Part shown: piece by piece, positions 519 through 39,109 of the stretch
Layout of the letters: every line of letters begins with the position of its first letter
How positions within the stretch are numbered: the stretch's first letter is position 1
Sequence record: MK327932.1
Length of the DNA stretch: 64,000 bases
Reading direction: 5' to 3' (one strand)
Source of the DNA: Escherichia phage vB_EcoM_G2248
Notes under the pieces: model-generated
Told to the model about the DNA's origin: nothing
Databases searched by the model: none
What the model saw: the letters and a program-made list of their open reading frames with translations, nothing else
Made by a program: the position numbers and the translations under genes

Positions 519-562
519 CCGAAACAAATTTTTATTATTCTAAAGATCTTTCTTCGTTTTGG
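519..562. repeat. ~44-bp imperfect palindromic intergenic element, copy A (ccgaaacaaa..agatct..cttcgttttgg)
   Basis: arms are near reverse complements around central AGATCT; near-identical copy at 38916-38958 and half copy at 39075-39109. Confidence 0.6.
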
Positions 563-631
563 TTATGTTTTAACCAATAACTATATTTTTATACAGTAAT
601 AAATAAAACGGGTACTATACGAGGACTTCTT

Positions 632-886
632 ATGACAGAAGACATTTTGTTAAAACTCTATGATCGTCTGGATAACGAATTAGCAACATTGCGGGGTGAA
701 GTTCTCTATTTGTCTAAATGCAATACAGATCTGCTTAAGCAGATTGCAGAAAGGGATGACCAAATAAAATCCCTTTCAGGTGCATTACGTGATCGCGACA
801 AAGCATTAGAGATTTTACAGCGTGTTACCAATAAGGAAGAATTAAAAGACTTCTTACATGGTTATGCTCATGCCATCGATCTATAA
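632..886 (+). CDS. hypothetical 84-aa coiled-coil protein (accessory ORF)
   Basis: complete ORF with charged/Leu-rich heptad-like sequence; hairpin terminator immediately downstream; absent from canonical T4 order. Confidence 0.5.
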   Translation: MTEDILLKLYDRLDNELATLRGEVLYLSKCNTDLLKQIAERDDQIKSLSGALRDRDKALEILQRVTNKEELKDFLHGYAHAIDL

Positions 887-887
887 T

Positions 888-918
888 AAAAAAGCCCGTC
901 AATGACGGGCTTAATTTT
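888..918. terminator. bidirectional rho-independent terminator (GCCCGTC-aatg-GACGGGC)
   Basis: perfect 7-bp stem, A-run upstream and T-rich run downstream; between convergent ORFs. Confidence 0.6.
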
Positions 919-1946
919 TAATATGTATCAGCTAATTTAATTATGTTATCAAGTTCCGTTATTGGTAAAGTTTCTGTGTATCCATCTTTCAACATAGATT
1001 TATCAACAACGCCACATTGATAAGTTCTCTTTATTTCCTTTTCAAGTTCCCACGGAATCCAGCCATCAACACTTTGTTTGACGTAAACAAGTTTATGAAC
1101 AAACTTAGATTTCTGCATATGTTGTTTCATTCTGGTTTCCGGTAATTCATTGGTTACACCAAACTTTATAAATTTATCATCTAACGTCTGGATATAAAAA
1201 TATCCTATCTCAGATGGACGATAGCCAGAAGAACTACATTTCGGACACCCTTTAGCATTTCTGCTGAACGTACAATATCTTACGGAAAATTCGGCGTCAT
1301 GTTTTGTACATTTAAGTTTTATCCATGAATTTGCAGTACCTATCCATTCACCATCGACACCTATATATTCATACCCTAACTTTTTACATTTATCTTCTAT
1401 TCTAGATAGTGCATCTTCTACGGGAACGACATATTCCGTCTTAAATTGTTCAGCCGCACATTTCTTACAACCACATGTACCATGATTTTTAAAATCAAAG
1501 AACTTTGTATTCTTCCAAATATGGTCATGTTTCTTGCATCTAAGAATAATCTTAGTAATTTGTGATTTCCAGCCACCAACAAATCCCAAAAATTCATAAT
1601 CAAGATCTTTACATTTTTCTTCAATGAATTTGGTTGCTTCCTCTTCTGTCATAACTCCCCTACATTGAGGACAACCAACAATAACCTTTTTAGCATAGAA
1701 ACTATTACTGGAAACATCATAGACAGATCCATGCTTATTGCATTGGATAACAGATCTAGTCAATTTTCCTTTCCATTCTCCAGAAAATCCTAAGAATGTA
1801 TGGTCGACAAGTTTACACCTTTCAATAACTTTATCCGCAAATTCTCTAGGAGATTTTGTTACTTTGTTTACTCTGTATTCTATTTCTTCCGGTTGACGAA
1901 GATAATAAACGTGGGGATTGCTCCCCACGGAATTAATATTAAGCAT
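918..1946 (-). CDS. accessory protein with three tandem zinc-ribbon repeats and C-terminal GIY-YIG-like (T5orf172-type) domain; candidate freestanding homing-type nuclease
   Basis: three ~47-aa repeats (FLGFxGxW..C.KH..GCPxC); C-terminal GYFYIQ..KFGVTN..R..QH; longest ORF runs to 2048 but overlaps gp2, so ATG at 1944-1946 (AAGGAAGG upstream) preferred. Confidence 0.5.
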   Translation of the reverse strand: MLNINSVGSNPHVYYLRQPEEIEYRVNKVTKSPREFADKVIERCKLVDHTFLGFSGEWKGKLTRSVIQCNKHGSVYDVSSNSFYAKKVIVGCPQCRGVMTEEEATKFIEEKCKDLDYEFLGFVGGWKSQITKIILRCKKHDHIWKNTKFFDFKNHGTCGCKKCAAEQFKTEYVVPVEDALSRIEDKCKKLGYEYIGVDGEWIGTANSWIKLKCTKHDAEFSVRYCTFSRNAKGCPKCSSSGYRPSEIGYFYIQTLDDKFIKFGVTNELPETRMKQHMQKSKFVHKLVYVKQSVDGWIPWELEKEIKRTYQCGVVDKSMLKDGYTETLPITELDNIIKLADTY

Positions 1947-2760
1947 CCTTCCACACCTTCCTTGCATCATAGTTTTTACCTTTAGAAACAAATTTATATG
2001 TGTTAAGGTAGATAATATTGCTCCAGTCTTTCGGGCTAATCTCAACAAGTTTTGTTTTAATGTGTCCCGGTAGATATGCTTTGATCATGTGATCACTTCC
2101 ACGCATACCTTTTACATCGCTCCATTTGATTTTTAAGCGTGTTTTATTGCTCAAGGTAGGAGTAGATGCATATTGCTTTAAAAGTGCCTCTAAAAACTGC
2201 TGACGGGCTTTAGGAGTTACATAGTGTAAGTTAAGACCCAGCATCACAGTATTACCCGCCTTTGTCTTAGAATCACCCAGACAAATGATCAGCGGGAAAA
2301 CATCCCAATATGGCAAAGTGTCTTTATACTTAGCATCATACATAAAGGTATAGATTCGCCCTACTTGCGGTTTTACAATCTGGTGTCCCTTTATTCCAGC
2401 TTTTATTGTTTTAGTAAACCACTCCTGTGATTTTTCTTTAGGACGACTCTTTGATACAGCACGCATAGACGCACGAAAATCATTAATCATCATCATTGCG
2501 CGTTGCTGCTTATTGAGACCCTTTGCGCCTTTCCCTTTTAGTTTTTCAACTTCTATTGCTGTTTTAATTTCGCTGGCATAACGAGACATACTTTTAGTGA
2601 AAGTCGCATAGGCTATTCCCTTAGAATCTGCAAATGCTTTAGCTGTCATGCCTTTGGCTTTTGCTTTCGCAAATTCTACACCCAATTCGACCCACTGTTT
2701 AGACTTTCTTTTTTGGGGAGACGGCTTTTCGTCTTCTGTGATTATTTCAAATACGCTCAT
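1939..2760 (-). CDS. 2: gp2 DNA end-protector protein
   Basis: 273 aa (T4 gp2 ~274 aa), basic protein, position between the gene 3 region and gene 4. Confidence 0.6.
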   Translation of the reverse strand: MSVFEIITEDEKPSPQKRKSKQWVELGVEFAKAKAKGMTAKAFADSKGIAYATFTKSMSRYASEIKTAIEVEKLKGKGAKGLNKQQRAMMMINDFRASMRAVSKSRPKEKSQEWFTKTIKAGIKGHQIVKPQVGRIYTFMYDAKYKDTLPYWDVFPLIICLGDSKTKAGNTVMLGLNLHYVTPKARQQFLEALLKQYASTPTLSNKTRLKIKWSDVKGMRGSDHMIKAYLPGHIKTKLVEISPKDWSNIIYLNTYKFVSKGKNYDARKVWKDA

Positions 2761-2771
2761 AATATTATCCT

Positions 2772-3245
2772 CTATTTGTTAAGCCCTTTAAAGCCAAACA
2801 CTTTCTTTAATGCATGTTCGGTGATGATCTTAAACTCCATGTTATGCTTTTGGCATAATTTCACGGCAGCTAACCATTTTTCAGTATTTTTTGTGTATGT
2901 CCATACTTCATGCATATATCGTTGCTTTGTCTTCGCGGTCATTCTTTTTGGCTTTTCCGGTGGCCTTGTCTCTTTAGCTGGTTTAACTTCCCATAAATGC
3001 TCCTTGCCATCATCAAACTTAACGTAAAAATCCATAAAGTATCTGTGTCTTTTTCCGTCTGTTGATGACTCATAAGGAATTACTACGGTCTCAGATCCCC
3101 ATTTTGCAACTCTAGGATTGCGGTCTAGCCACTGCATGATCCATCTTTCCCAGCTTGAACGGTATGTGATCTTACGTATATCCCCTTTATACTTTTCCTT
3201 ATTCTCAGGAACATACTTGCCCTTATAAGTGTTAGATCCTCCCAT
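2772..3245 (-). CDS. 4: gp4 head completion protein
   Basis: 157 aa, divergent from gp53 as in T4; size and synteny. Confidence 0.6.
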   Translation of the reverse strand: MGGSNTYKGKYVPENKEKYKGDIRKITYRSSWERWIMQWLDRNPRVAKWGSETVVIPYESSTDGKRHRYFMDFYVKFDDGKEHLWEVKPAKETRPPEKPKRMTAKTKQRYMHEVWTYTKNTEKWLAAVKLCQKHNMEFKIITEHALKKVFGFKGLNK

Positions 3246-3260
3246 TTTAGCACCCTTTAT

Positions 3261-3268
3261 TATAAATA
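3261..3268 (+). promoter_or_regulatory. T4-type late promoter box TATAAATA upstream of gp53
   Basis: exact TATAAATA ~33 nt upstream of ATG 3301, inside a 12-bp inverted repeat (3245-3256 / 3289-3300). Confidence 0.6.
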
Positions 3269-3300
3269 CATAATACTATTTATCAATTGAGGGTGCTAAA

Positions 3301-3855
3301 ATGCTCTTTTCTTTCTTCCCTGCCATTGAATACAACGGCAAGATGATTACTGACATTGTGCGCAATTACCGCGCATATTTCAACGCAATAATTTCTGATT
3401 ATAACATACAAACATATTACATTCAAGGTAGTCCACGACCGGAACAAGTTGCATATGAAGTATACGGAAACCAACAACTTTATTGGATCTTGCTGATGCT
3501 TAATGACGTATACGATCCGTTCCATGACTGGATCACCGATCAAGAGACAGCATATGAATCAGCCGAACAACGATATGCAAACGTAGGAGGAAATCAAGTA
3601 TTATACCACGTTGATATTGACGGAAACAAGTATTGGAATCTTACCGAATATCCGAAAGGATCAAGCAATTGGTATGATAAAGGGGATATTCATCACCGTT
3701 ATTTGCAGTTTCAGGGTGCATTATCGGCAGTAGACACACTGGAAGATGCGATCCTCCGTAATGAGGAACGACGCAAGATCAAGATCATAGATCCTACACA
3801 AATTAAACAATTTATTAACGCATTCATTCGAGAAATGGAAAAGGCTGATGTGTAA
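3301..3855 (+). CDS. 53: gp53 baseplate wedge protein
   Basis: 184 aa directly upstream of gp5; synteny and size (T4 gp53 196 aa). Confidence 0.6.
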   Translation: MLFSFFPAIEYNGKMITDIVRNYRAYFNAIISDYNIQTYYIQGSPRPEQVAYEVYGNQQLYWILLMLNDVYDPFHDWITDQETAYESAEQRYANVGGNQVLYHVDIDGNKYWNLTEYPKGSSNWYDKGDIHHRYLQFQGALSAVDTLEDAILRNEERRKIKIIDPTQIKQFINAFIREMEKADV

Positions 3856-3866
3856 GGTGATTAATT

Positions 3867-5666
3867 ATGCTAATGTTTAATAACTCCGTTAAATGGTTTA
3901 CCGGAATTGTAGAAAACAGGGAAGACCCATTAATGCTGGGGCGTGTTCAGGTTAGGATTCATGGTATACATCCCTCGCTATCCGCGCACGGTGACATTCA
4001 AGGTCTTCCAACCGAAGATCTATTATGGATTACGCCAGTACAAGATATTACAAGCGCGGCGATCTCCGGTATAGGTCAAAGCCCTACTGGTATTGTTGAA
4101 GGTTCAATGGTATTTGGTTTGGCTTTAGATGAACGTTATTTAAACTGCGTTATTCTGGGTACTATTGCCGGACAATATACAGAGAAACCACTCACTACAG
4201 AAGGTTTTTGCGACCCTTCTGGTGCATATCCTCGTTATATTGGTAATGATGTTAATATTCTTGCTCGTGGCGGTATTAACCCAGAAACCGGACAAACAAC
4301 AAAACCTGATAGTGTCTATATTCGAGATGAAAACACTGGAGTTGCAGTAAATCCAGACGACGAGCCATTAGACCAAATTCCGGTTGATGATAATCCTGAT
4401 TTTACAATAGAAAAAATGCTGCGGGGCGATGAGGGGTATCGCGAGAAATGGTATCTTGATTCAGAAGGATATCCGACAATAGGCATCGGGCATTTGATCA
4501 TTTATAAGAAAACCAGTGATCTTGGTATTATCAATAATGAACTTTCTAAGCTGGTAGGGCGTGAAGTTACAAACGGAAGACTTACCGCCGAAGAAGTTAG
4601 TAAAGTATTTGCTGACGATATAGAAAAGACTCGTCGTGATATGCGCAAACATCCACGAATTGCACCTGTCTATAATAAATGTAATGCCTCACGTCGTATG
4701 GCATTAGAAAATATGGCGTTTCAAATGGGTGTTGGTGGATTGGGTAAATTTAAGAATAGTCTTGCTGCGATGTTAGCGGAAGAATGGAAACAAGCCTATG
4801 ATGGATTACGTCAATCGGTATGGGCTAACCAAACTCCAGGACGCTCCAGCCGTGTTTCTAAAATTATTTTAACTGGTAACTTAGAATCATATGGCGTAAT
4901 TGCTCCAAAGAAAGAGGAATCAATTTCTGATGATCCGCGAGCACGTTTGAGAAATGCCCGTATTGCTGCCTATAAGACGCAGAGAGCAGAAGAAGACCCA
5001 GAAGCACCGTTTACCCCACAAGACACACGAATCATGTTTAAAGAGCCTAAGAGTTCGTATTCTGCTAGGTATCCTTATAACCATGTGTACGAGTCAGAGA
5101 GCGGTCATATTATCGAGATTGATGATACTCCTTCTCATGAGCGATATCATCGTAAACATCCTTCGGGTACATTTGAAGAAACCAGACCGGACGGAACGAG
5201 GGTAGAAAAGATTGAAGGCGATGATTATCTGATCGTTAAACAAGGCCGGAAAGTAAACGTTAAGGGTAATTTGCAAGTTGTTGTTGAAGGTGACGCGCAA
5301 GTTTATTATATGGGTAATGTGATGCAAACCGTTGATGGCAACGTCACTGAATTTATTCGTGGCAATGTTAATCAGACCGTTGAAGGTACTGCTAACATGC
5401 ATGTTGTTGGTGATGTTATCGCACAGCTTGACGCTAATTTGACGGCTAACGTCAAGGGTAATGCTGAATTAATGATCGAGGGTAACACTACCGAAACAAT
5501 TAAAGGTAACTATGATTTAACCGTTGAGGGTAATTTTAATATGACCGTCAATGGCACTAAATCAGATCAGGTTAATGGTGACTGGTCCCGTAATTGTGGT
5601 GCAAGCGTTAAAGATATTGCATCTGGTACAGTTCAAATTGATGGTAGCCGTATTGATTTTGGGTGA
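3867..5666 (+). CDS. 5: gp5 baseplate hub / tail-associated lysozyme (cell-puncturing device)
   Basis: N-terminal OB-like region; T4-lysozyme-like core EKMLRGDEGYREKWYLDSEGYPTIGIGHL; C-terminal VxGN beta-helix repeats. Confidence 0.9.
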   Translation: MLMFNNSVKWFTGIVENREDPLMLGRVQVRIHGIHPSLSAHGDIQGLPTEDLLWITPVQDITSAAISGIGQSPTGIVEGSMVFGLALDERYLNCVILGTIAGQYTEKPLTTEGFCDPSGAYPRYIGNDVNILARGGINPETGQTTKPDSVYIRDENTGVAVNPDDEPLDQIPVDDNPDFTIEKMLRGDEGYREKWYLDSEGYPTIGIGHLIIYKKTSDLGIINNELSKLVGREVTNGRLTAEEVSKVFADDIEKTRRDMRKHPRIAPVYNKCNASRRMALENMAFQMGVGGLGKFKNSLAAMLAEEWKQAYDGLRQSVWANQTPGRSSRVSKIILTGNLESYGVIAPKKEESISDDPRARLRNARIAAYKTQRAEEDPEAPFTPQDTRIMFKEPKSSYSARYPYNHVYESESGHIIEIDDTPSHERYHRKHPSGTFEETRPDGTRVEKIEGDDYLIVKQGRKVNVKGNLQVVVEGDAQVYYMGNVMQTVDGNVTEFIRGNVNQTVEGTANMHVVGDVIAQLDANLTANVKGNAELMIEGNTTETIKGNYDLTVEGNFNMTVNGTKSDQVNGDWSRNCGASVKDIASGTVQIDGSRIDFG

Positions 5667-5674
5667 GGTAACTA

Positions 5675-6241
5675 ATGGTTGAAATTCTTCCGATGAGTTC
5701 AAAATTGGAGGATATCAGCGAGCGAGAAATCTTTGAGGTGGTGTTCTCTTATAAAGCAACGCCACCGGATGCAAATACCACATACACGATTAAAGAGTTT
5801 AAGATCAGCGAGTATCGCCCTAATAAGGGCGTTACCGTTGAAGAAACTAAAATATCTGGTGAGTATAGGGATAGTTTTTCGCTTGGCGCGGATTCTCTTA
5901 AATATATAACGAAAGATCGAATTAAAAAATCTGCCGGAAGTTTTGATGATTTACCAGATCCAACTACCGCAGATCTATATTATTTTAACGCTCCTACACG
6001 TCTACAGGAGGTTTATACTTATAAAGTAACCCTAACCTATATCCAATCTGTTTCAGAGTCTCCTGGTGGTTCTGGTGAAGGAAATAGTGGTGGTTCCAAT
6101 AGCCGAGAGGGTGCTGGTGAAACTAATCCGCCTCCGGTAGTAACCGAGCACACAATAGAGAAAGTTTATACTCAAACCGTTTTTGGAAATTGGGATGTGT
6201 GGGCGCAGCAACTAAGAGATTATGTACATAGGGGTGTTTAA
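5675..6241 (+). CDS. hypothetical protein in the gp5.1 position
   Basis: 188 aa between gp5 and the PAAR-like gene; positional only. Confidence 0.4.
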
Positions 6242-20635: not shown

Positions 20636-21568
20636 ATGTCAGGATATGTAACCAATAACCCAAGAGAATTAAAAGACGCTATTCTGCGTCGTTTAGGCGC
20701 ACCAGTAATTAACGTAGAAGTCACAGAAGACCAGATTTACGATTGTATTCAGAGAGCACTAGAACTCTATGGGGAATATCATTTCGATGGTGTGAATAAA
20801 GGATATAAAGTATTTCGTGTTAGTGCAGAGCAAGCGCAACACGGGGTATTTGATTTAAGCGATTCTGGAGTATTCGCAGTAACTAAAATAATTCGAACAA
20901 ACGTAGGTAGCGCGGCTACGATGGATGGTACTGCCGTTTATCCGTGGTTTACTGACTTTCTGTTGGGTTTAGCGGGTGTAAATGGCGGTTTAGGATCTGG
21001 CTGTAGTAAATTTTATGGTCCAAATGCAATGGGCGGTGATCTGGGATATTTCGAACAGCTTATGAGCTATCGCGCAACTATGCAAAACATGCTTAATCCT
21101 CTTCCCGATTACTGGTATAACAGCGCAAACGGACAACTTAAGATTACAGGAAATTTTCGAGAAGGTGATCTCATTGTTGTTGAATTATATGTTAAAAGCT
21201 ATGTAGATGTTCCTGATATGATCGGCGCGGTTGCTGGCTATGCCCATGCAGGAGGATGTTCTACCGCTGGCGGGATTAGTGCCGTTTATGATAACCCAAC
21301 CGCAGGATTGAGCGGTATTTCGGCAGGAATGGGACCAATTAGAGAAAACAAACAGGGCGCATATAATAACCGTTGGGTGAAAGATATGGCTACCGCTTTC
21401 ACTAAGGAGGTGTGGGGGTCCATCATGGCTAAACATCAAGGTCTGCAATTACCTGGCGGTGTCACTGTTGATGGTATCCGAATCATTGAAGAAGCACGCG
21501 CCGATATTGAGAAATTGCGACAAGAACTAGAATTATTAGATCCTCCGTTCGGCATCCTCATGATTTGA
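20636..21568 (+). CDS. 13: gp13 neck protein
   Basis: 310 aa (T4 309 aa), synteny. Confidence 0.75.
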
Positions 21569-21604
21569 TTTATTGGGGGAGTATTCCCCCATTTGGAGTA
21601 ACAT

Positions 21605-22345
21605 ATGTTTAACAACACTCTTTTTGCTCGCCTTGAATCGCAAAAGGATTATGAGAATACACGACAAACAGAGATTCTTAATCCTTATGTGAACTTTCAC
21701 AAATATACAAATACTCAGACGTTAGCCGACGTTATGGTCGCCGAAGCTATTCAGATGCGAGGTGTAGAATTATATTACATCCCTCGTGAATTTGTCAAAC
21801 CAGATATGATATTTGGTGAGGATGTTCAAAGCAAATTTACTAAAGCATGGAAATTTGCGGCTTATATTAACTCATTTGATGGGTATGAAGGAGCGGGTAA
21901 CTTCTTCTCTAGTTTCGGTTATCAAGCCAATGATGAACTAACTTTTACGGTTAACCCCAACCTATTCAAGCATCAAGTAGATGATCAAGAGCCAAAATCA
22001 GGTGACTTGATTTATATTCCAATGAGTAATGATTTATTTGAAATCTCATATGTAGAGCCATATCAGCCGTTTTTTCAGGCTGGCAAAAATGCCATGCGTA
22101 AAATTATTGCAGAGAAATTCGTGTATAGCGGCGAGGAATTGCGACCAGAATTACAACGCAATGAGGGAATTAATGTTGATGAGTTTGCGGATCTGGACCT
22201 TGCACCGATCACTAATCTGGACGGATTAACAGATATCAACTTAGAACAGTACAAAGAAGATAAGCAATTCAGAAGCGAAGGACAAGATTTTATTGACCCG
22301 TTTGATCCTATTAATGGCAAGGGTTCACCTTTTGCTAATTTTTGA
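21605..22345 (+). CDS. 14: gp14 neck protein
   Basis: 246 aa (T4 256 aa), synteny. Confidence 0.75.
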
Positions 22346-30402: not shown

Positions 30403-30413
30403 CAGGAAACAAC

Positions 30414-31109: not shown

Positions 31110-31140
31110 TAACGTCGTTATCAACAAGAAGGTTATAACC

Positions 31141-31935: not shown

Positions 31936-31953
31936 TGTAATTCAAATCTACTT

Positions 31954-31961
31954 TATAAATA
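31954..31961 (+). promoter_or_regulatory. late promoter box TATAAATA upstream of gp23
   Basis: exact TATAAATA ~34 nt upstream of ATG 31995. Confidence 0.65.
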
Positions 31962-31994
31962 CTTTAGGTTAACAACAAACAAGGTTTAAAGAAC

Positions 31995-33581
31995 ATGAAA
32001 ACTACCAAAGAACTGATGGAAAAATGGTCCCCGCTGCTGGAAAACGAAAAACTGCCGGAAATCGCAACTGCGTCTAAGCAGAAACTGGTTGCTAAAATTC
32101 TGGAATCTCAGGAAGCGGATTTTGCTGTAGACCCGATCTATAAAGATGAAAAAGTTGTTGAAGCATTTGGCGGCTTTATCACCGAAGCAGAAGTTGCTGG
32201 CGACCACGGCTATGATGCATCCAAAATCGCCGCAGGTCAGACTACTGGTGCAATCACCAACGTAGGTCCGGCTGTTATCGGTATGGTTCGCCGTGCTATC
32301 CCTAACCTGATCGCATTTGATATTTGTGGCGTTCAGCCGATGAGCACCCCGACTAGCCAGATCTTTGCAATCCGTTCTGTATACGGTGCTGATCCGCTTG
32401 CTGTTGGTGCTAAAGAAGCATTCCATCCGATGTACTCTCCGAATGCATTCCATAGCTCTCTGGCTGCTAAAGGTGCAACTGTAGGTTCTCCGCTGGGTAC
32501 GGCATTCCAGAAACTGGCTATGCAAAGTGCAATTCAGGCTGGCGATATCGTTCATCACACCTTCGCAGAAACTGGCATTGCATATCTGCAAAACGTTACC
32601 GCAGAAGCAGTAACTCCGCAGAAAGCAGGGCAGGAAAGCGAAGATGAAGTAGTAATGAAACTGATGGAAGAATGTAAACTGGTCGAAATCGCTTTCGGTA
32701 TGGCAACTTCCATCGCGGAAATTCAGGAAGGCTTTAACGGTTCTCAGAATAACCCGTGGGCTGAAATGTCAATGCGTATTGACAAACAGGTTGTTGAAGC
32801 GAAATCTCGCCAACTGAAAGCCCGTTACTCTATCGAAGTTGCACAGGATCTGCGTGCTGTACACGGTATGGACGCTGACGCCGAACTGAATGCTATTCTG
32901 GCTAACGAAGTTCTGCTTGAAATCAACCGTGAAATCGTTGATGTAATCAACTTTACCGCTCAGGTTGGTAAAACTGGTATGACTCAGACCGTTGGTTCTA
33001 AAGCTGGTGTATTTGACCTGCAAGACCCGATCGATACTCGCGGTGCTCGTTGGGCTGGTGAATCCTTCAAATCTCTGATCTACCAGATCGACAAAGAAGC
33101 TGCTGAAATCGCTCGTCAGACTGGTCGCGGTGCGGGTAACTTTGTTATCGCTTCCCGTAACGTTGTAAACATTCTGGCGTCTGCTGATCAGGGTATCAGT
33201 CTTGCTATGCAGGGTGCTGCAAAAGGTCTGAATACCGACACCACTAAAGCTGTTTTCGCTGGTGTTCTGGCTGGTAAGTACAAAGTATTCATCGACCAGT
33301 ATGCTCGTCAGGACTACTTCACCGTAGGTTACAAAGGCGACAACGAAATGGATGCTGGTATCTACTATGCTCCGTATGTTGCTCTGACTCCGCTGCGTGC
33401 AACTGACCCGCAGTCTTTCCATCCGGTTCTGGGCTTCAAGACTCGCTATGGCATCGGCATCAACCCGTTTGCTGACAGCAAATCCCAGGCGCCGTCCGCT
33501 CGCATCACCTCCGGTATGTTGAGCAAAGAAAGCGTAGGTAAAAACGCATACTTCCGCCGTGTATGGGTTAAAGGTTGCTAA
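31995..33581 (+). CDS. 23: gp23 major capsid protein
   Basis: 528 aa; N-terminus MKTTKELMEKWSPLLENEKLPEIA resembles T4 gp23 precursor. Confidence 0.95.
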   Translation: MKTTKELMEKWSPLLENEKLPEIATASKQKLVAKILESQEADFAVDPIYKDEKVVEAFGGFITEAEVAGDHGYDASKIAAGQTTGAITNVGPAVIGMVRRAIPNLIAFDICGVQPMSTPTSQIFAIRSVYGADPLAVGAKEAFHPMYSPNAFHSSLAAKGATVGSPLGTAFQKLAMQSAIQAGDIVHHTFAETGIAYLQNVTAEAVTPQKAGQESEDEVVMKLMEECKLVEIAFGMATSIAEIQEGFNGSQNNPWAEMSMRIDKQVVEAKSRQLKARYSIEVAQDLRAVHGMDADAELNAILANEVLLEINREIVDVINFTAQVGKTGMTQTVGSKAGVFDLQDPIDTRGARWAGESFKSLIYQIDKEAAEIARQTGRGAGNFVIASRNVVNILASADQGISLAMQGAAKGLNTDTTKAVFAGVLAGKYKVFIDQYARQDYFTVGYKGDNEMDAGIYYAPYVALTPLRATDPQSFHPVLGFKTRYGIGINPFADSKSQAPSARITSGMLSKESVGKNAYFRRVWVKGC

Positions 33582-33589
33582 TTAAACTC

Positions 33590-33616
33590 CGGTCGGGTGC
33601 AATGCCCGACTTTATC
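33590..33616 (+). terminator. terminator hairpin 1 after gp23 (GTCGGG-tgcaatg-CCCGAC)
   Basis: 6-bp perfect stem followed by TTTAT. Confidence 0.5.
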
Positions 33617-33649
33617 ATAAACCTTATGACAGTGTAAAGTGTTAATTCC

Positions 33650-33682
33650 AAAGGGAAGACTCGAAAGGGTCTTCCCTTTTTG
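33650..33682 (+). terminator. terminator hairpin 2 after gp23 (GGGAAGAC-tcgaaagg-GTCTTCCC + T5)
   Basis: 8-bp perfect stem and T5 run. Confidence 0.7.
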
Positions 33683-33697
33683 CGTATTATATCCCGT

Positions 33698-33705
33698 TAT
33701 AAATA
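33698..33705 (+). promoter_or_regulatory. late promoter box TATAAATA driving the inserted late module
   Basis: exact TATAAATA ~38 nt upstream of ATG 33744. Confidence 0.6.
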
Positions 33706-33743
33706 AGGTTGCAAGCCTATATTCTAAGGGGAGCGAAAATTAG

Positions 33744-34052
33744 ATGCACACACTCATAAAGACCAAAACTCCAGCCGTTTCCGCACCCGTAAACTGTATT
33801 CATAGTTCTCACATGACCGTGCAAATGTCAGTTGAAGGGGTAAGGGAAGGGCAAAAAGTCATTGCGGAAGCCTTGTTAGAAGGTTCTCTAGATGGTAAAG
33901 GTTGGTTCACTATTTCAGAATTGAAAGCTGATGGTAATGAATATGCAACTGATGGTGGAGCGTTTGAAACATTATGGTCGTTTATTAGGGCAAATGTAAA
34001 ATCAGTATCTAATGATTCTACTGTAACGGTGTATCTTGCTAAACGGGGGTAA
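33744..34052 (+). CDS. hypothetical 102-aa protein (late accessory module gene 1)
   Basis: AAGGGGA RBS; no recognisable motif. Confidence 0.5.
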   Translation: MHTLIKTKTPAVSAPVNCIHSSHMTVQMSVEGVREGQKVIAEALLEGSLDGKGWFTISELKADGNEYATDGGAFETLWSFIRANVKSVSNDSTVTVYLAKRG

Positions 34053-34056
34053 TTAT

Positions 34057-35769
34057 ATGAAGCTAAATCCACAAGCTATCATTAGTGCTGGTTCCGTGAG
34101 TGGTGGTTGTTCTGGTGGTATTCAGATCGGGACTAACGTACCTAGCGGAATTAAAAATACCCATCGTTTCGAAAATGAAGAAGCGAGGGATACATATTTT
34201 ACCGAACATTTTCCAGAATTAGATAGACTAAAAACAATTATTGTTTGCGGTGCTAAACTTCAATTATGGACTGGTAATACAGCACAATCCCCGTATGATA
34301 ATTCTAAATGGGTCGATATGACCTGGGTGATTCAGGGCGAACAAGGTATTACTGGAGAGAAAGGCGAAAATGGACGTGGAATTGCTAGAATCGCAGCACA
34401 ATTATCTGACGATGATCGAAACTGGACTCTAGAAATTACATATACAGACTCAACGCAAGAATCTTTAGTATTTCCTGTTCCAGATGTATTAGCAAACTTC
34501 GTACAGCGTTTAAACGCAATCGAAGTAAAATGGACAACAACCAATCCAATCAACAATCTCGGGGTCGCTATATCACCCGGACGCTATCCGGTAGGTGATG
34601 CAACTTATGGAAAACCTCCAATGATGGCGAATAAGGGGTCCGCAGATGTATATGTCGTTGATGGTAGCGTTATTCAGGTGGTCCGTTCTGTTGATGGTGG
34701 CGTTTACACTCGTATCCGACACAATGGAGAATGGAGTGAATGGAACTCTCAAAACGATGGTGGAATTGGTGGCGGTGGTTTAACTGGTGATCAGGAAGCT
34801 ATGCTAACAAGTCTAAGCACTCGTTTACCGGAGACGTCACCAGAAATACTGGATTTAAACACTCTGACTAAACAAGGTCGCTTTTGTTATTTTGAAGGGA
34901 CCGCAAACCGTCCGAATGGAGCACAAGCACACGGTTCAGTAGACGTACATTCGTGTAAAAACTATGTGTTACAGATTGCAACCAGTGTAGAAGGGGTAAT
35001 GTATCATCGCTCATACACAAAGAAAACTGATTCATGGTCCGAATGGACACAGATCAGCGATCATACTGGAGGGGCGACAATATATGAGTTCCCTCGTGTG
35101 TCTAGTGTGTTCACGACCGCACAAAGTTTAATCGAGGCAACAACACCGGGTACTGGAGGCGGGGCATTTTATATTCCGTGGAAATATGTCATTCATGATA
35201 ACTATGGGTGTACACCACGGATATCAGAGCCAGTTAGACAGAACGATGCCGATCATTGGTGGGTGTGTCCGAAATATGGAAGTTATGACATGGAATTGAT
35301 TTTTGATGTTGGTTTTATTAAAACACCACAAACAATTCCTCCTATCTTTACAATCACGGTATGGCATCGATTAACCGACGGTCGAGAACAACAAGCAGCA
35401 CGTTATCAGATTGGATTAGATGTATCACAAAAAAACCAAACATCAAAATCGCTAAAATTGAGAATGACTCACATTACATCGGGAGAGATGTTCCGGTGGC
35501 ATGTTTCATTTAATGGTGGTAGTTGGTCGGCAAGCGATAACCCAGATGTTTCCCTTGTACCATTCCGAACATTGCTGATGGTCGATGAAGTGGAACACGA
35601 TTCAGCAAAACGAATTGGTTCGTTAGCATACAACACATGGGCGAATTTTCAAGCTAGAAAAGGTCTGGCGGCGACTGTAAGTGAAGACGAATTAAAAAAA
35701 GCTCGTCTTAATGCCGTTAAATGGAGCGCATCAATCGAAAGTGTTGATGCATCTCAGGACGACCAATAA
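34057..35769 (+). CDS. hypothetical 570-aa fibre-like protein with short collagen-like Gly-X-Y stretch
   Basis: start at ATG 34057 (GGGGG RBS; ORF track starts at 34036); GEQGITGEKGENGRG collagen-like triplets and GGIGGGG linker. Confidence 0.55.
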   Translation: MKLNPQAIISAGSVSGGCSGGIQIGTNVPSGIKNTHRFENEEARDTYFTEHFPELDRLKTIIVCGAKLQLWTGNTAQSPYDNSKWVDMTWVIQGEQGITGEKGENGRGIARIAAQLSDDDRNWTLEITYTDSTQESLVFPVPDVLANFVQRLNAIEVKWTTTNPINNLGVAISPGRYPVGDATYGKPPMMANKGSADVYVVDGSVIQVVRSVDGGVYTRIRHNGEWSEWNSQNDGGIGGGGLTGDQEAMLTSLSTRLPETSPEILDLNTLTKQGRFCYFEGTANRPNGAQAHGSVDVHSCKNYVLQIATSVEGVMYHRSYTKKTDSWSEWTQISDHTGGATIYEFPRVSSVFTTAQSLIEATTPGTGGGAFYIPWKYVIHDNYGCTPRISEPVRQNDADHWWVCPKYGSYDMELIFDVGFIKTPQTIPPIFTITVWHRLTDGREQQAARYQIGLDVSQKNQTSKSLKLRMTHITSGEMFRWHVSFNGGSWSASDNPDVSLVPFRTLLMVDEVEHDSAKRIGSLAYNTWANFQARKGLAATVSEDELKKARLNAVKWSASIESVDASQDDQ

Positions 35770-35783
35770 TTAGCGGGGGGTGA

Positions 35784-36716
35784 TTGATGACTGACATTAA
35801 GGCAAAAATTAGCCAGTTGCAAACTGATTTTGTTCAAGGCGAGATCACACATTTCACCGGAAACGAATCAAATGCTCTAATGGAAAGTGATGTTGAAAGA
35901 ATTTCAAATTCAATCAACACTCAATTAATTGATCCTGTAATTGATTTTGTTATTGCTTGTGATGAAGTAATAGCAGAAACAGCAAGCGAGGCACATCAAG
36001 CGGCAGAAGTAGCAAAAAATACTGCTGACGTGGCAGACCGAACGGCAGGTCAATCCATGAGTATGGCAACTGATGCAATTGCTAAAGCTACTACCGCTGA
36101 ATCAGAAGCAACACGAGCACACACCCGATTAGATGAACTGAATATTCCAACAATGCCTAATCTTGATAACCAGACATGGAACTGGCTATCAAGATCTTTT
36201 GATAGTGTCAGTATTAGAGTTGGTAATGGTGTAACATTAGCTGACTCTAATACTAAACCACATATCACATGGACACCAATTCGCCAAAACTTTGAAACAG
36301 GTAGCTATTACGTTGAAGGACGTTTTGAAGCTCGTTTTAAAGTAATGGTTCGAGATTGGATTCAGGGCGAAGGTGGTAATATTGTTTATCTGGCAGGAAT
36401 TGATAGTTTAGCGTCATTTAACGGTTGGATTTATCTGGATGGTTTATCATCTACGGATACGATGAAAACAACCAATATTCAGATTAACGCATACACACAA
36501 AAAGACTCGCAAGTAGTATTTGGCGCTAGTGCTGTTGCGTCTATGTCAGATTCAACAAAAGTTAAAATGGCGTTATTCGTAAACGTAGGAACAGATAGAT
36601 TTGATCAATATACAGATCCGGTCTATGTCGACCTTGTTATGACATTCCAGCGTGACGCTAGCGGTAATTTTGGTTTTGGTACGTTGTTCCCAGAATTAAC
36701 CCCATCTTCTTCATAA
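35784..36716 (+). CDS. hypothetical 310-aa protein, N-terminal helical / C-terminal beta-rich (possible fibre tip or adhesin)
   Basis: complete ORF, tightly linked downstream of the fibre-like gene. Confidence 0.5.
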   Translation: MMTDIKAKISQLQTDFVQGEITHFTGNESNALMESDVERISNSINTQLIDPVIDFVIACDEVIAETASEAHQAAEVAKNTADVADRTAGQSMSMATDAIAKATTAESEATRAHTRLDELNIPTMPNLDNQTWNWLSRSFDSVSIRVGNGVTLADSNTKPHITWTPIRQNFETGSYYVEGRFEARFKVMVRDWIQGEGGNIVYLAGIDSLASFNGWIYLDGLSSTDTMKTTNIQINAYTQKDSQVVFGASAVASMSDSTKVKMALFVNVGTDRFDQYTDPVYVDLVMTFQRDASGNFGFGTLFPELTPSSS

Positions 36717-36725
36717 GGAGGAAGG

Positions 36726-36878
36726 CATGAGTAAGAAAGAAAACGGCTATGTTATGACTCGTAAGGAATACGACGAATTGATGTTAGCATTAGCGTATGC
36801 GATTATTCGTTCTGATCATGCAATTAATCTGGTGCACAAAGTCAATCGTAGTGTTGATAATGTTGCTAGGAAGAAGTA
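36726..36878 (+). CDS. small hypothetical protein (50 aa)
   Basis: ATG preceded by strong RBS TAAGGAGGAAGG; below ORF-track size cutoff. Confidence 0.4.
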
Positions 36879-36885
36879 ATTTTAT

Positions 36886-36918
36886 TTTGGGAATCCTTCG
36901 GGATTCCCTTTTCTTTTT
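36886..36918 (+). terminator. rho-independent terminator (GGGAATCC-ttcg-GGATTCCC + T-run)
   Basis: perfect 8-bp stem with tetraloop followed by TTTTCTTTTT. Confidence 0.7.
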
Positions 36919-36919
36919 G

Positions 36920-36927
36920 TATAAATA
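36920..36927 (+). promoter_or_regulatory. late promoter box TATAAATA upstream of gp24
   Basis: exact TATAAATA ~38 nt upstream of ATG 36965. Confidence 0.6.
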
Positions 36928-36964
36928 TGATATATCCATTAAGGCAAATACAGGATTCATAAAC

Positions 36965-38206
36965 ATGACTCATATTTTTACTGAACTGTTGCGGGAATCT
37001 ACTTCCTCAGTAGCTAACCAGACAGCGCGACCGCAACTATTATCACTGACTCGCGCGGTAAACAACCTGATTTTCTCTGATCTGGTGGCAATCCAACCAA
37101 CCGATCAACCAGTATCTGCATTGTACGGCCTACGTTATCTTAATCATGATGGTCAGATGACGTTCCGGACCGCTGCAACCTATGGCGGTGCTGTTGGTGA
37201 TCGTTCTGATATTGAAGAATTTTCACAAGAAAAATCCTATGATGTAGGAGCAAAATTTAAATCAGGCGATGTTGTATACGAAGTTGTAACCGCTGGTACA
37301 GTAGGTGCAGATGCAGCCACGCCCGAAGCCGCAATTTTTAAAGGTGTGATGACAAATCAGATTCGCTTCTATAGCGACTGTGCACCTGTAGAATACTTTG
37401 AAGATAAAAACACAGAGATCTCATCAACGTCAATGCAGTTTGATAAGTGGCAGGTTAATGTAGGTTCTCGTAAATTGAAAACCTCGTTCACCACTGAATT
37501 AATGCAGGATCTTGAAGCAAGCCAAATCAACTCTGAAAACTCTGTAATTGATCTTCTGGCTACTGTCGCTTCCGAAGAGATCAACAAAGATATTATACAG
37601 AAGTTGATCACTGTATCAACTCGCTATAAAATTAAAGGGATCACCCCTGATGGCGTACTTTCTCTAGTTAGCGTTCAGGACGCACCAAAACAAGCTCGCG
37701 AACTTTACCGCTATGCTTGCGAAATGAGCAATCAAATGTTGCGTACTTCCTCCTTTGCTGGCACATACGTTTTGGCGTCTTCTCGCGTGGTTGGTCTCCT
37801 GCAATCTACCGGATGGATGGAAGAAACCGACAATGCTCTAAGCGAAGGCCGTCTACGCTGTGGTCTGGAAGTGTACGCAGATACGGTAACTCCGTTTGAT
37901 TATATGGTCGTTGGCTGTAAACACATGATCGGTGATATGGAGAGTGTAGGTTCTCTTTTCTACTCCCCATACACAGAAGCCGATGGCGCTGGCGCATATA
38001 AGAGCGTAATCGATCCTAACAGCTTCCAACACCATGTAGCTATTATGAATCGTTATTCACTCTCTGTCAACCCATACACAGCAAAAGTTGACCAAGAAGA
38101 ACACCAGGTCATCAAGGGTGACGAGTGGGCTAAACTTGCTGGACGTTCAGAAATGTCCTACATTTTAGGTATCGAACTGCCACCGCTTGAGATTGACAAC
38201 TCTTAA
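36965..38206 (+). CDS. 24: gp24 capsid vertex protein
   Basis: start at internal ATG 36965; N-terminus MTHIFTELLRESTSSVANQTARPQLLSLTRA resembles T4 gp24 and is gp23-paralogous. Confidence 0.85.
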   Translation: MTHIFTELLRESTSSVANQTARPQLLSLTRAVNNLIFSDLVAIQPTDQPVSALYGLRYLNHDGQMTFRTAATYGGAVGDRSDIEEFSQEKSYDVGAKFKSGDVVYEVVTAGTVGADAATPEAAIFKGVMTNQIRFYSDCAPVEYFEDKNTEISSTSMQFDKWQVNVGSRKLKTSFTTELMQDLEASQINSENSVIDLLATVASEEINKDIIQKLITVSTRYKIKGITPDGVLSLVSVQDAPKQARELYRYACEMSNQMLRTSSFAGTYVLASSRVVGLLQSTGWMEETDNALSEGRLRCGLEVYADTVTPFDYMVVGCKHMIGDMESVGSLFYSPYTEADGAGAYKSVIDPNSFQHHVAIMNRYSLSVNPYTAKVDQEEHQVIKGDEWAKLAGRSEMSYILGIELPPLEIDNS

Positions 38207-38794
38207 CTAAATATCTAACCAAGACAAGTCAGATCCGCCCAAGATTTTTTCGACGGCGGATCTATTTTCTTGATGATATAAGTTAAAACATGGTATCCCA
38301 TGTCTACGGGCAACATAAACAGCAATTCGAGTTCCGCCCGAAACAATACCATTAACTTCTTTCGCCCAAAATAACACACAATCTACAGGATCATCAAGTG
38401 TCTCACCTAAGACTTGAGCAACATTTCTAGAAAACAGATTTTGCATGTATAGCGGTATAGAACGAGGATTATCATAAACGTGTTCTAATTCATCCATCGC
38501 CAGATTCTTTTGCTCTAGAGTCTGCCACGCAATCACATCACGACCATTATGCTTATGATCGTAAAACTTCCAATTTGGAATGAAAATTTTTCTATAATCT
38601 GGGTCGTAATACTTCATGAAAGCATTGTCCATACCGTAAGCCCCTCCAGAATGCGCTACAACGCGATTTTCTGACAATACCCTCCCAATGGCACTAGCCA
38701 TTATCAAAATGTCGTTAGGCGCTTTTCTAGAGCCTATAAGAGCACATCTACGAAGTGGTTTTACTCCAAATAGATCTTGTAACTGGTCAAACAT
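38207..38794 (-). CDS. DprA/Smf-like Rossmann-fold protein (SLOG superfamily)
   Basis: ALIGSRKAPNDILIMASAIGRVL..VVAHSGGAYGMDNAF and later EVNGIVSGGTRIAVYVARRHGIPCF match DprA core signatures; start at ATG 38792-38794 behind GGAGGAA RBS. Confidence 0.55.
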   Translation of the reverse strand: MFDQLQDLFGVKPLRRCALIGSRKAPNDILIMASAIGRVLSENRVVAHSGGAYGMDNAFMKYYDPDYRKIFIPNWKFYDHKHNGRDVIAWQTLEQKNLAMDELEHVYDNPRSIPLYMQNLFSRNVAQVLGETLDDPVDCVLFWAKEVNGIVSGGTRIAVYVARRHGIPCFNLYHQENRSAVEKILGGSDLSWLDI

Positions 38795-38915
38795 AATATT
38801 TTCCTCCATAGAAAGCAGTATCATATTACAAGTTAATAACAAATACAAGTATCCGCGTAGCGGAAGCGAGCACAGCGAGCATTAAAACACTTCCAGTAAC
38901 TGATTAATAAATGTT

Positions 38916-38958
38916 CGAAACAAATTTTTATTATTCTATAAGATAAGTCTTCGTTTTG
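38916..38958. repeat. ~44-bp imperfect palindromic intergenic element, copy B
   Basis: cgaaacaaatttttattattctataagataagtcttcgttttg; near-identical to copy A (519-562). Confidence 0.6.
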
Positions 38959-39074
38959 TTCATAATTTAATCATACATGTAAAAACTACACAAAAAGGAT
39001 ATCGCTTCGCGAACTCCTACGGAGTATAACATTTGTGTTACAATATGTAGTGATTAATAATTAACCAAAGATAC

Positions 39075-39109
39075 ATTTTCTATGTTCTAAAGATCTTTCT
39101 TCGTTTTGG
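39075..39109. repeat. palindromic element copy C (right half conserved: ttctaaagatctttcttcgttttgg)
   Basis: matches right arm plus ~20 nt of flanking sequence of copies A and B. Confidence 0.5.

Follow-up and report, generated by a model that had tools for sequence, protein, structure and literature searches.

The question raised by this locus is which function a 44-bp imperfect palindrome has that lies between the genes of a Krischvirus, i.e., an RB49/Phi1-like T4-type coliphage. An earlier note had reported three copies in the window, the 64-kb stretch of phage DNA that was analysed, and had proposed an operator, a recombination hotspot for module exchange, or a bidirectional promoter. All three sequences are indeed present, at 519-562 (copy 1), 38916-38958 (copy 2) and 39075-39109 (copy 3, a right half plus flank, as described). 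The full 44 nt of copy 1 are unique in the window at up to three mismatches. Its left 23 nt, CGAAACAAATTTTTATTATTCTA, are identical at 38916-38938, and its right 20 nt, AAGATCTTTCTTCGTTTTGG, at 39090-39109; shuffled sequences led to an expectation of zero matches in both cases. The description of copy 2 as an almost exact recurrence applies to this identical left half, but not to the right half, which differs from copy 1 by about five substitutions and one inserted base (read by eye). The arms, CCGAAACAAA and TTCGTTTTGG, are near reverse complements, as had been seen, with pairing at 8 of 10 positions plus one G.T.

The palindrome is the central helix (P1) of a longer non-coding module, which is very AT-rich and hairpin-forming. 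Alignment of the copies revealed that the conserved unit comprises about 110-125 nt rather than 44. A covariance-model search detected exactly three copies in the window and four in the Phi1 genome. The genome-wide search that had been suggested thus yielded a fourth copy, at Phi1 149,924-150,040, outside the window. It lies between the core tail-fibre genes 35 and 36, so that the copies do not occur only beside non-core insertions, as had been assumed. In the phage collection the element was matched in 58 of 58 Krischvirus records, at 231 places or about four per genome, as counted by matches per record. The possibility that the repeat has neither further copies nor conservation in relatives is, therefore, contradicted. 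The element matches no described element.

The module has the order outer helix (P0, TGRTTA/TARTCA), A-rich internal loop, helix of 9-12 bp (P1), and variable apical loop. On the 3' side of this core usually two abutting GC hairpins of 4-6 bp with triloops follow. Conserved boxes in the alignment are TGATTAAA, ATCTT and TAATCAG. The modules of the window and the parts of copy 1 are as follows:

476-586, minus strand (gene-sense): copy 1, whole module; covariance-model match at 502-579 (minus), 80.7 bits, E = 4.5e-12.
571-576, minus strand: 5' arm of outer helix P0, sense TGGTTA; pairs with 505-510; included in the pair counts.
553-564, minus strand: 5' arm of helix P1, sense AACCAAAACGAA, the right arm of the earlier note; covarying helix.
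529-552, minus strand: apical loop; contains the motif ATCTT..AGAATA, which is conserved, and AAAGATCTTT, a local palindrome; near-invariant alignment columns 33-37.
517-528, minus strand: 3' arm of helix P1, sense TTTGTTTCGGTT, the left arm of the earlier note; covarying helix.
505-510, minus strand: 3' arm of outer helix P0, sense TAGTCA; included in the pair counts.
492-504, minus strand: mini-hairpin H2, sense GTGCC-TCC-GGCAC (loop GGA on the plus strand).
479-491, minus strand: mini-hairpin H3, GTCGC-AAA-GCGAC, followed by AATTGTTAAT.
38998-39128, minus strand: copy 3, whole module; covariance-model match, 82.2 bits, E = 2.4e-12.
38848-38978, minus strand: copy 2, whole module; covariance-model match, 71.4 bits, E = 2.8e-10.

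Copy 1 had folding z-scores of -3.4 (RNA) and -4.0 (DNA). Its P0 5' arm is also part of an alternative hairpin, H1 (TTGGTTA at 559-565 with TAACCAA at 571-577, plus strand). H2 of copy 1 is found again in copy 4, there with a TAC loop, and the loop of H3 is GAA in copy 4 and in the relative L132. Copy 3 has its P0-P1 core at 39048-39126, an additional AT hairpin at about 39026-39047, H2 at 39013-39025 (ACTCC-GTA-GGAGT) and H3 at 39002-39012 (TCGC-GAA-GCGA). Copy 2, the most degenerate copy, has a core at 38898-38976 and one hairpin at 38852-38864 (TCCGC-TAC-GCGGA), and it folds no better than shuffles (z = +0.4); the other z-scores were between -2.2 and -5.9. The copies are mosaics: copy 2 consists of the 5' half of copy 3 and the 3' half of copy 1, and L089 and L090 have only the 5' half in common.

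A homologue was detected by blastn (E about 1e-9) in the non-coding iteron region of an E. coli prophage of about 39 kb, which is unrelated to Krischvirus; both infect the same host. There the element lies within a non-coding hub of 1.4 kb, flanked on one side by a leftward promoter and on the other, at a distance of about 490 bp, by an array of about 11 iterons that are spaced at multiples of about 21 bp. Matches were present in 56 of 5,426 complete E. coli genomes (about 1%), at one or two places each; the four of them that were inspected all lie in one prophage family. A scan of 185,579 species genomes led to five matches in unrelated taxa, presumably by chance. In Rfam 15 no family reached its gathering score in the window, and at E values up to 10 only noise was obtained over the copies and the prophage region.

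Comparison of the homologues revealed that base pairing is maintained. In the proposed pairs 81% of the cells pair, versus 24-46% when the 3' partners were slid, and 8 pairs are changed on both sides, versus 0-3. The observed covariation score was reached by none of 500 shuffles. The covarying helix P1 corresponds to alignment columns 16-29 with 54-67. RNAalifold independently predicted the same two helices, with a weak consensus fold energy of -3.4 kcal/mol. The prophage variants retain the helix with other sequences, ACATCAAAAGAG/CTCTTTTGATGT and CAAACGTA/TACGTTTG, by compensatory changes, showing that pairing and not sequence is selected. On the gene-sense strand G.U-type cells (25) outnumber C.A cells (13), and P0 of copies 1 and 4 requires two tandem G.T pairs. 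One natural prophage variant (L100) has lost the apical loop, which is otherwise hypervariable. The palindrome supplies the main helix of a non-coding module that is extremely AT-rich, conserved in structure and shared horizontally, and we think that the module works as a folded single-stranded nucleic acid rather than as a duplex protein-binding site.

The AT-richness is extreme also within the phage. No other 79-nt stretches of the window are as AT-rich as the cores of copies 1 and 2 (17.7% and 19% GC, compared to a mean of 40.8%), and the core of copy 3 is among its twelve 79-mers of lowest GC; the covariance-model matches have core GC contents of 0.19-0.26. A GNA triloop, as in GCGAAGC and CCGAAGG, is found on either of the two strands in most of the small hairpins that accompany the element, whereas none of 15 unrelated window hairpins with the same geometry (5-bp stem, 3-nt loop) has one (both by eye). 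GNA triloops form a hyper-stable type of DNA mini-hairpin that is much weaker as RNA, and they have been reported at the G4 origin, at RSF1010 ssiA and at the N4 hairpin promoters (PMC13037366).

Next, the genomic context was analysed. Copy 1 lies between the divergent gene 3 (minus strand, ATG at 442) and an ORF130-like gene (plus strand, 632-886). Copies 3 and 2 are arranged in the order ORF165 terminator, copy 3, copy 2, ORF164. At copy 4 the order is gene 35 terminator, element, TATAAATA of gene 36, and the first helix follows the terminator at a distance of only 16 nt. The signals in the window are:

464-471, minus strand: late-promoter-like AATAAATA before gene 3, outside the element.
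892-912, bidirectional: terminator between the ORF130-like gene and that of the GIY-YIG endonuclease; keeps sense transcription from reaching copy 1.
39182-39201, minus strand: intrinsic terminator that follows the 145-aa gene (39210-39647, minus) and shortly precedes copy 3.

The canonical TATAAATA is at the equivalent relative place after copy 4, and the late promoter of genes 36 and 3 is downstream of the element and outside of it. Every copy lies in a transcription gap, either after a terminator or before a promoter, and all four Krischvirus copies are co-oriented with the neighbouring genes. No sigma-70 -35/-10 pair at a consistent position was found on either strand of the copies; the best candidates score 8-9 of 12 at inconsistent positions. 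In addition, no recognisable promoter reading into any copy was found. The idea of a bidirectional promoter is, thus, not supported. In RB69, PG7 and one T4-type phage the gap between genes 35 and 36 has only about 60 nt (terminator, TATAAATA, ribosome-binding site), indicating that the module is an autonomous insert that is separate from gene 36 expression. Homing-endonuclease genes adjoin copy 1, and in the metagenomic Krischvirus L040 an HNH-AP2 endonuclease gene is inserted exactly at the 3' edge of the element.

We favour, tentatively and with a probability of roughly 35%, a DNA-level unwinding or single-strand initiation element, i.e., a candidate origin-like role. The module would unwind easily and would be placed in transcription gaps, either between promoters or upstream of them, in which negative supercoiling may build up. 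On opening, the long imperfect hairpin (P0-P1) would be extruded and the flanking GNA-triloop mini-hairpins would fold, and they could keep the module open. The replication machinery might then enter or prime at the opened module, which would amount to an origin-like or ssi signal with a role comparable to that of the several dispersed T4 origins. It is possible, but still somewhat doubtful, that an undescribed class of structure-defined cis elements (an AT-rich covarying hairpin plus tandem GNA mini-hairpins) is a replication-initiation or priming signal of RB49-like phages that was exchanged between a virulent phage of the T4 type, where it was amplified to four loci, and a temperate phage of E. 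coli, where it belongs to the iteron/control region. Several observations argue against an origin-like role. Origins of the T4 oriF/oriG type require an upstream promoter for the R-loop, which was not found here, the prophage element is not adjacent to the iterons, the tandem G.T pairs in P0 are weak in DNA and tolerable in RNA, the excess of G.U-type over C.A cells suits RNA equally well, and T-rich tracts follow H3 in the four Krischvirus copies. Low GC is common in ordinary intergenic DNA as well. Furthermore, T4-type phages have their own loading system, gp59/41/61, and we know of no hairpin signal for that system.

Close behind this reading, but likewise doubtful, is a small structured non-coding RNA or a cis-acting RNA leader in gene-sense orientation. 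It would be composed of P0-P1 and the two 3' hairpins and end at the T-rich tract, which resembles that of weak terminators. It would have a target in the host or the phage, or would affect its own transcript, either its stability or its termination, and the four copies would raise the dosage in the lytic phage. The G.U pairs of the covarying helices, including P0 of copies 1 and 4, are valid on the sense strand only, the copies are co-oriented with their neighbours, each of them follows a terminator or lies in a divergent gap like an independent small gene, and the negative fold z-scores are consistent with a transcript. H1 is mutually exclusive with the main fold, which suggests a folding switch. 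However, a promoter at a consistent position was not found, copy 4 starts directly behind a terminator, Rfam gave no match, the consensus fold energy is weak, the prophage copy has no T tract, and the apical loop is hypervariable and missing from one variant. In addition, GNA/TNC triloops are found on either strand, and as RNA they have no special stability (PMC13037366). That a phage or host protein binds the element in duplex form, as an operator or promoter, is very improbable: both arms change together in the prophage homologues and compensate each other, the opposite of what is expected for a protein half-site. The conserved boxes, the vicinity of promoters and the local palindrome AAAGATCTTT with its GATC site in three copies would fit an operator, but neither this palindrome nor GATC occurs in copy 2 or in the commonest prophage type. 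Moreover, TGATTA and TAATCA are mutually complementary boxes, which suggests a helix, and a -35/-10 geometry is lacking.

A recombination junction has some support, namely the L040 insertion at the 3' edge, the mosaic copies and the sharing with the prophage, but these features look more like a consequence of the element than its function. That the module is a selfish or neutral small mobile cassette, which spreads between gaps and phages like the PeSLs described below and needs its structure only for its own mobility, e.g., single-strand transposition or endonuclease-assisted homing, is unlikely. It would account for the occurrence in two unrelated phage types of one host, the insertion relative to other T4-like genera, the homing-endonuclease genes beside copy 1, and the homology of the GIY-YIG nucleases of prophage and Krischvirus. 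Yet, judged by matches per record, no genome without the element was seen among the 58 of Krischvirus, the prophage carries a single copy, neither a transposase nor an integrase was found nearby, and compensatory change has kept the helices over long divergence. Terminal inverted repeats and target duplications could not be defined, so that the module does not correspond to a MITE or another small non-autonomous transposon, and the one or two places in 1% of the E. coli genomes do not either. Even less probable is an insulator or terminator block of a late-promoter cassette, a late-gene counterpart of the PeSLs, in which the hairpins would stop read-through and let the late promoter behind them act on its own. 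Copies 1 and 4 are homologous up to TTGTTAA, directly before (T/A)ATAAATA, and a lax terminator scan flagged H3 of copy 1 and the hairpin of copy 2. Against this stand the short stems (5 bp for the flagged hairpins, 4-6 bp in general), the strong terminator that is already present upstream of copies 3 and 4, and the lack of a late promoter downstream of copies 2 and 3 and of the prophage copy, and the long covarying hairpin would be left unexplained.

The favoured origin-like reading would have consequences for T4-type replication. No description of origins in T4 relatives other than T4 was found, and the review of T4 replication (PMC3016281) is silent on RB49. Neither motA nor asiA is annotated in Phi1, and the best-studied T4 origins are MotA-dependent; an AT-rich module that is conserved, dispersed over late-gene gaps and selected for its structure is, therefore, a concrete origin candidate. 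If this is true, T4-type origins can be portable structural modules without a promoter; if instead the RNA alternative is true, a phage-borne small RNA family is common to temperate and virulent coliphages. Irrespective of its role, a virulent myovirus has one folded element in common with an uncharacterised temperate phage of its host, where it is part of the control region; a non-coding module has clearly been exchanged here across phage lifestyles. The element is also a handle on the non-coding hub of the prophage, and for annotation it is now distinguished from the PeSL cassettes of the genus.

The element shares features with several known systems. An integron attC is a folded single-strand recombination site in which a conserved outer duplex is separated by an unpaired spacer from an inner duplex, and the terminal structure varies. 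The element resembles it in architecture, in the conservation of structure over sequence and in strand specificity, but it has neither RYYYAAC/GTTRRRY core sites nor a gene-cassette array, and the annotations of the Phi1 genome and of the inspected prophage region contain no integron integrase. Similarly, ssi signals and related mini-hairpins (the G4 complementary-strand origin, RSF1010 ssiA, the N4 hairpin promoters) are strand-specific stem-loops with little sequence conservation, and the motifs GCGAAGC and CCGAAGG are common to both. These signals were defined on single-stranded DNA phages and on plasmids, and the enzymes involved were DnaG, RepB' or the virion RNA polymerase of N4. To our knowledge, no link to an enzyme of this type is known for T4-type replication. 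As in ssi signals, the element has a strand-specific stem-loop that is kept without sequence conservation, and the prophage copy sits in an iteron-bearing region. It also has mini-hairpins of the stable DNA type, which is defined by GNA or GNNA loops closed by C-G, and two consecutive mini-hairpins have been reported to bind SSB poorly (PMC13037366).

The PeSLs (promoter-early stem-loop cassettes) of RB49/Phi1 (Arbiol et al. 2010, PMC2839356; Comeau et al. 2014, PMC4122927) are also repeated intergenic cassettes of about 100 bp with stem-loops at junctions of gene gain and loss in the same genus, and their leader ACCGAAACGAA (in this window at 58.5-62.5 kb) resembles ACCAAAACGAAG of the element, which is mentioned in neither paper. 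In contrast to the element, PeSLs have a near-perfect TTGACA-N17-TATAAT promoter (the full consensus in this window), a G(n)-loop-C(n) stem-loop that overlaps this promoter and, directly downstream, an ORFan with its ribosome-binding site and ATG, and they are found in hyperplastic early regions. The element lies in late-gene clusters and has a long covarying hairpin with AT-rich stems (P0, P1) and GNA mini-hairpins with GC stems of 4-6 bp.

Finally, T4 has at least five dispersed origins (Kreuzer and Brister 2010, PMC3016281). The minimal oriF(uvsY) and oriG(34) have about 100 bp with an A+T-rich unwinding element, need an upstream MotA-dependent middle promoter, and T4 origins lie in regions of late-gene transcription near strand switches, where the non-template strand becomes single-stranded (PMC3016281). 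The element does not fit these R-loop origins in one respect, as no promoter reading into it was found and copy 4 begins shortly past a terminator. It shares with them the unit of about 100 bp, the A+T-rich segment within it, the several dispersed copies, the late regions, the strand switches and the co-orientation with transcription. While the T4 origins have no common sequence motif, the copies of the element are homologous.

The element is an undescribed, structure-selected, AT-rich non-coding module that is common to all collected Krischvirus genomes and to a temperate E. coli phage. The first 3 kb of the window are 93-99% identical to RB49/Phi1/JSE-like coliphages (genus Krischvirus, T4-type myoviruses), and its genes are arranged as in Phi1: 57B, 57A, 1 and 3 (minus strand), ORF130 (plus strand), a GIY-YIG endonuclease gene with genes 2 and 4 (minus strand), and 53, 5 onward (plus strand). 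The earlier note had reported a 44-bp imperfect palindrome in three copies between positions 519 and 39109, and the three sequences are indeed present there. The full 44-mer of copy 1 occurs only once in the window when up to three mismatches are allowed; exact repeats of its left 23 nt (38916-38938) and of its right 20 nt (39090-39109) are also present, and both were absent from shuffled sequence. Of the two halves of copy 1, the left is thus found in copy 2 and the right in copy 3; the copies are mosaics of one another.

A genome-wide search for further copies, as the note had proposed, revealed a fourth one in Phi1, outside the window. The element was also conserved in relatives: blastn with 81 nt around copy 1 matched all 58 Krischvirus records of the phage collection at 231 places, i.e., about four copies per genome. 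The hits of a covariance model of the outer helix P0 and the inner helix P1 numbered three in the window, four in Phi1 and one in the prophage described below, with no cryptic copies beyond these. The module is thus real, non-random and larger than first described. The copies and their surroundings are as follows.

476-586, minus strand: copy 1, between the divergent gene 3 and ORF130; the late-like AATAAATA of gene 3 is at 464-471
892-912: bidirectional terminator, further upstream of copy 1
38848-38978 and 38998-39128, minus strand: copies 2 and 3, a tandem pair spaced by 150 bp and flanked by the 145-aa gene's terminator (39182-39201) and the DprA-like gene
Phi1 149.92-150.04 kb, beyond the window: copy 4, in the gap that separates core tail-fibre genes 35 and 36, after the gene 35 terminator and before TATAAATA, the canonical gene 36 late promoter

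Copies were read on the strand of the neighbouring genes, which is the window minus strand for copies 1-3. On this gene-sense strand the homology among copies spans about 110-125 nt and comprises seven parts.

Part 1: box TG(A/G)TTAAA
Part 2: first helix arm, (A)CCAAAACGAAG
Part 3: apical loop of 20-27 nt, with ATCTT..AGAATA kept
Part 4: second helix arm
Part 5: A-rich spacer
Part 6: box TA(A/G)TCAG
Part 7: usually two abutting GC hairpins of 4-6 bp with 3-nt loops (H2, H3)

The arms of the palindrome form P1, and the two complementary boxes, TG(A/G)TTAAA and TA(A/G)TCAG, form P0. Copies 1 and 4 and most of the prophage variants have a further 5' hairpin, H1; it overlaps the 5' arms of P0 and P1 and would compete with both. 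The stems of the mini-hairpins are unrelated between copies (GTGCC, ACTCC, GCAACC, GACGCTC; GTCGC, TCCGC, ATCCC), and thus structure is what is kept there too. Copy 3 contains an additional AT-rich hairpin, TGTAACA-CAAA-TGTTATA (39026-39047), which includes ATTGTAAC. Neither ATTGTAAC as a Tus Ter-like core nor the DnaA-box-like TGTGGATAC just upstream of copy 3 (39166-39176) was supported, both being within chance expectation. The motif (T)ATTTTTATACAGT lies on the 5' flank of copy 1 (590-606, plus strand) and of copy 4 (Phi1 149912-149925), but the two orientations with respect to the element are opposite. Chance in such AT-rich sequence could account for this, as could a small inversion.

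The pairing of P0 and P1 was analyzed with 15 distinct sequences, using slid 3' partners and 500 shuffles as controls. Paired cells amounted to 81%, compared with 24-46% for slid partners, and eight pairs were changed on both sides, compared with 0-3. The covariation score was 0.235, a value reached by none of the 500 shuffles, and was at most 0.062 in the controls. Unguided RNAalifold predicted the same two helices. Single sequences folded better than shuffled ones (z -2.2 to -6.6), whichever strand was folded and whether RNA or DNA parameters were used; the exception was copy 2, which looks degenerate and whose fold did not beat shuffled sequence. In divergent prophage variants P1 and the apical loop were the most variable parts, and pairing was nevertheless retained, as in the following P1 arms.

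CAAAACGAAGA / TCTTTCTTTTG
ACATCAAAAGAG / CTCTTTTGATGT, 12 perfect pairs
CAAACGTA / TACGTTTG
CAAACGTAACT / AGTTATCTTTG

Structure, rather than sequence, is conserved in the module. In one metagenomic sequence of the prophage family the apical loop is deleted between two ATCTTT direct repeats and P1 is retained with a loop of just 4 nt, so that the motif conserved in the loop may not be essential.

The prophage homologue was detected by an exact-pattern scan of IMG/VR, which yielded about 30 contigs of 15-45 kb with a clearly homologous element of the same architecture. Its carrier, present in 58 of 5,426 complete E. coli genomes, is a prophage of about 39 kb inserted in ycdX; among its products are a serine recombinase, a DEAD/DEAH helicase and a lambda-type large terminase, and most of the remaining genes are hypothetical. 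The prophage region had no match in phage or plasmid collections. Using blastn against phages, the prophage element matched Krischvirus with E = 8e-10 to 3e-9 (about 80% identity over 75-80 nt); the other matches, to Lactococcus and uncultured phages, were few, weak and chance-like (E ~0.1). A core-pattern scan of 185,579 species genomes gave five matches in unrelated taxa, presumably by chance, and the metagenome scan revealed Krischvirus and the ycdX prophage family and no other context.

In the prophage of E. coli KSC64 (L087) two divergent operons are separated by 1.4 kb of non-coding DNA (20924-22312), at the start of which the element lies. This hub contains about 11 iterons TTTCAGGGGCAAAA (21607-21795) spaced by multiples of about 21 bp, as well as TCTAGAATCATCTAGTA repeats and further GNA-triloop mini-hairpin pairs that separate modules. 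Two strong, near-consensus sigma-70 promoters in tandem (21835-21891) are followed by a terminator (22257-22271), which suggests a putative non-coding RNA of about 400 nt. The hub is bracketed by a perfect 15-nt inverted repeat, TCACTATTATTTATA / TATAAATAATAGTGA (20962-20976 and 22244-22258), with one arm some 40-55 nt upstream of each of the two divergent prophage genes; the repeat may serve both as a common operator or promoter element. Mimicry of, or pairing with, the ribosome-binding site of the adjacent prophage gene by a helix arm (inverted repeat I7) was rejected, because that site shows no co-variation in another member of the family (L089). The GIY-YIG endonuclease beside copy 1 (918-2048, minus strand) is homologous over its full length to a GIY-YIG nuclease of the prophage family (L139 9926-11101; 28% identity, E=7e-33), and thus the two phages have two unrelated items in common. 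Many Krischvirus genomes lack this endonuclease, whereas all of them have the element.

Every copy occupies a transcription gap. The earlier view that copies are confined to the borders of accessory inserts is contradicted by copy 4, which lies between core genes, only 16 nt from the upstream terminator. In RB69, PG7 and a T4-type phage just about 60 nt separate genes 35 and 36, with a terminator, the promoter TATAAATA and a ribosome-binding site in them; in Krischvirus the module is thus inserted between this terminator and this promoter. A metagenomic Krischvirus (L040), which lacks the GIY-YIG gene, has an insert of about 590 bp exactly between H3 of its copy 1 and the gene 3 late promoter; the insert carries a homing endonuclease gene of HNH-AP2 type, which has a sigma-70 promoter of its own, TTGACA-N17-TAGATT.

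Known identities were searched for without success. No Rfam family matched the element at gathering score, and none matched any copy or the prophage region at E up to 10. Likenesses to integron attC, HK022 put, lambda nut boxB, a type I-F CRISPR repeat and the f1 nick site were noticed and found to be unsupported. The module is also not one of the promoter-early stem-loop (PeSL) cassettes of RB49/Phi1: in the window these have TTGACA-N17-TATAAT, G/C-run stem-loops and an immediately following ribosome-binding site (58.5-62.5 kb), whereas the module lacks all three features and is not described in the PeSL papers (PMC2839356, PMC4122927). At least five PeSL cassettes lie at 58519-62452 (minus strand), in the order AT-rich upstream tract, TTGACA, G/C stem-loop in or near the spacer, TATAAT, leader ACCGAAACGA, ribosome-binding site and small-ORF ATG. 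The leader is similar to ACCAAAACGAAG of the element, which may reflect shared ancestry or recombination.

Among the explanations weighed, a DNA-level unwinding or single-strand-initiation (origin-like) role was given the highest probability, about 35%. The operator and bidirectional promoter put forward in the earlier note are very improbable: the element is not a duplex operator because its arms co-vary, and sigma-70 and terminator scans of all window copies and the prophage copy, together with a relaxed scan, gave no consistent promoter, none qualifying as sigma-70 on either strand. Neighbouring proteins (PHROG, Pfam) gave just Rha/anti-repressor, DUF2774 and a weak DprA signal, and no candidate binding or replication protein. 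A terminator or insulator block of a late-promoter cassette is hardly more probable. Exact TATAAATA late promoters map to the window plus strand only, with none inside the element. A mobile cassette without function of its own, compatible with the insertion at genes 35/36, is improbable next to the conserved pairing. A structured small RNA is a close rival, itself doubtful. In its favour are the tolerance of G.U-type pairs on the gene-sense strand (25 cells versus 13 C.A cells; in P0 of copies 1 and 4 they stand in tandem), the co-orientation of the copies with adjacent genes, the T-rich tracts after H3 in Krischvirus copies, and the competing H1, which suggests a folding switch; however, such an RNA has no promoter, and at copy 4 the upstream terminator leaves just 16 nt.

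Folding at the DNA level is favoured by the promoter absence, this 16-nt spacing, the gap position, the AT-richness and the GNA triloops. No 79-mers in the 64 kb are richer in AT than the cores of copies 1 and 2, and copy 3 is one of the twelve lowest in GC. Most associated mini-hairpins have a GNA triloop on one of the two strands, often as GCGAAGC or CCGAAGG, compared with 0 of 15 unrelated window hairpins of the same geometry. Mini-hairpins of this type are hyper-stable as DNA and much weaker as RNA, two consecutive ones bind SSB poorly, and DNA mini-hairpins have been reported at the G4 complementary-strand origin, RSF1010 ssiA and N4 hairpin promoters (PMC13037366). With each copy upstream of or between promoters, transcription would, by the twin-domain model, generate negative supercoiling at the module. 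The main mismatch with the T4 origins is that oriF and oriG require an upstream promoter, which was not found for the module. T4 also offers parallels: oriF and oriG in their minimal form measure about 100 bp, with an A+T-rich unwinding element and an exposed non-template strand, and the at least five dispersed origins of T4 lie mostly in late-gene regions, near strand switches (PMC3016281).
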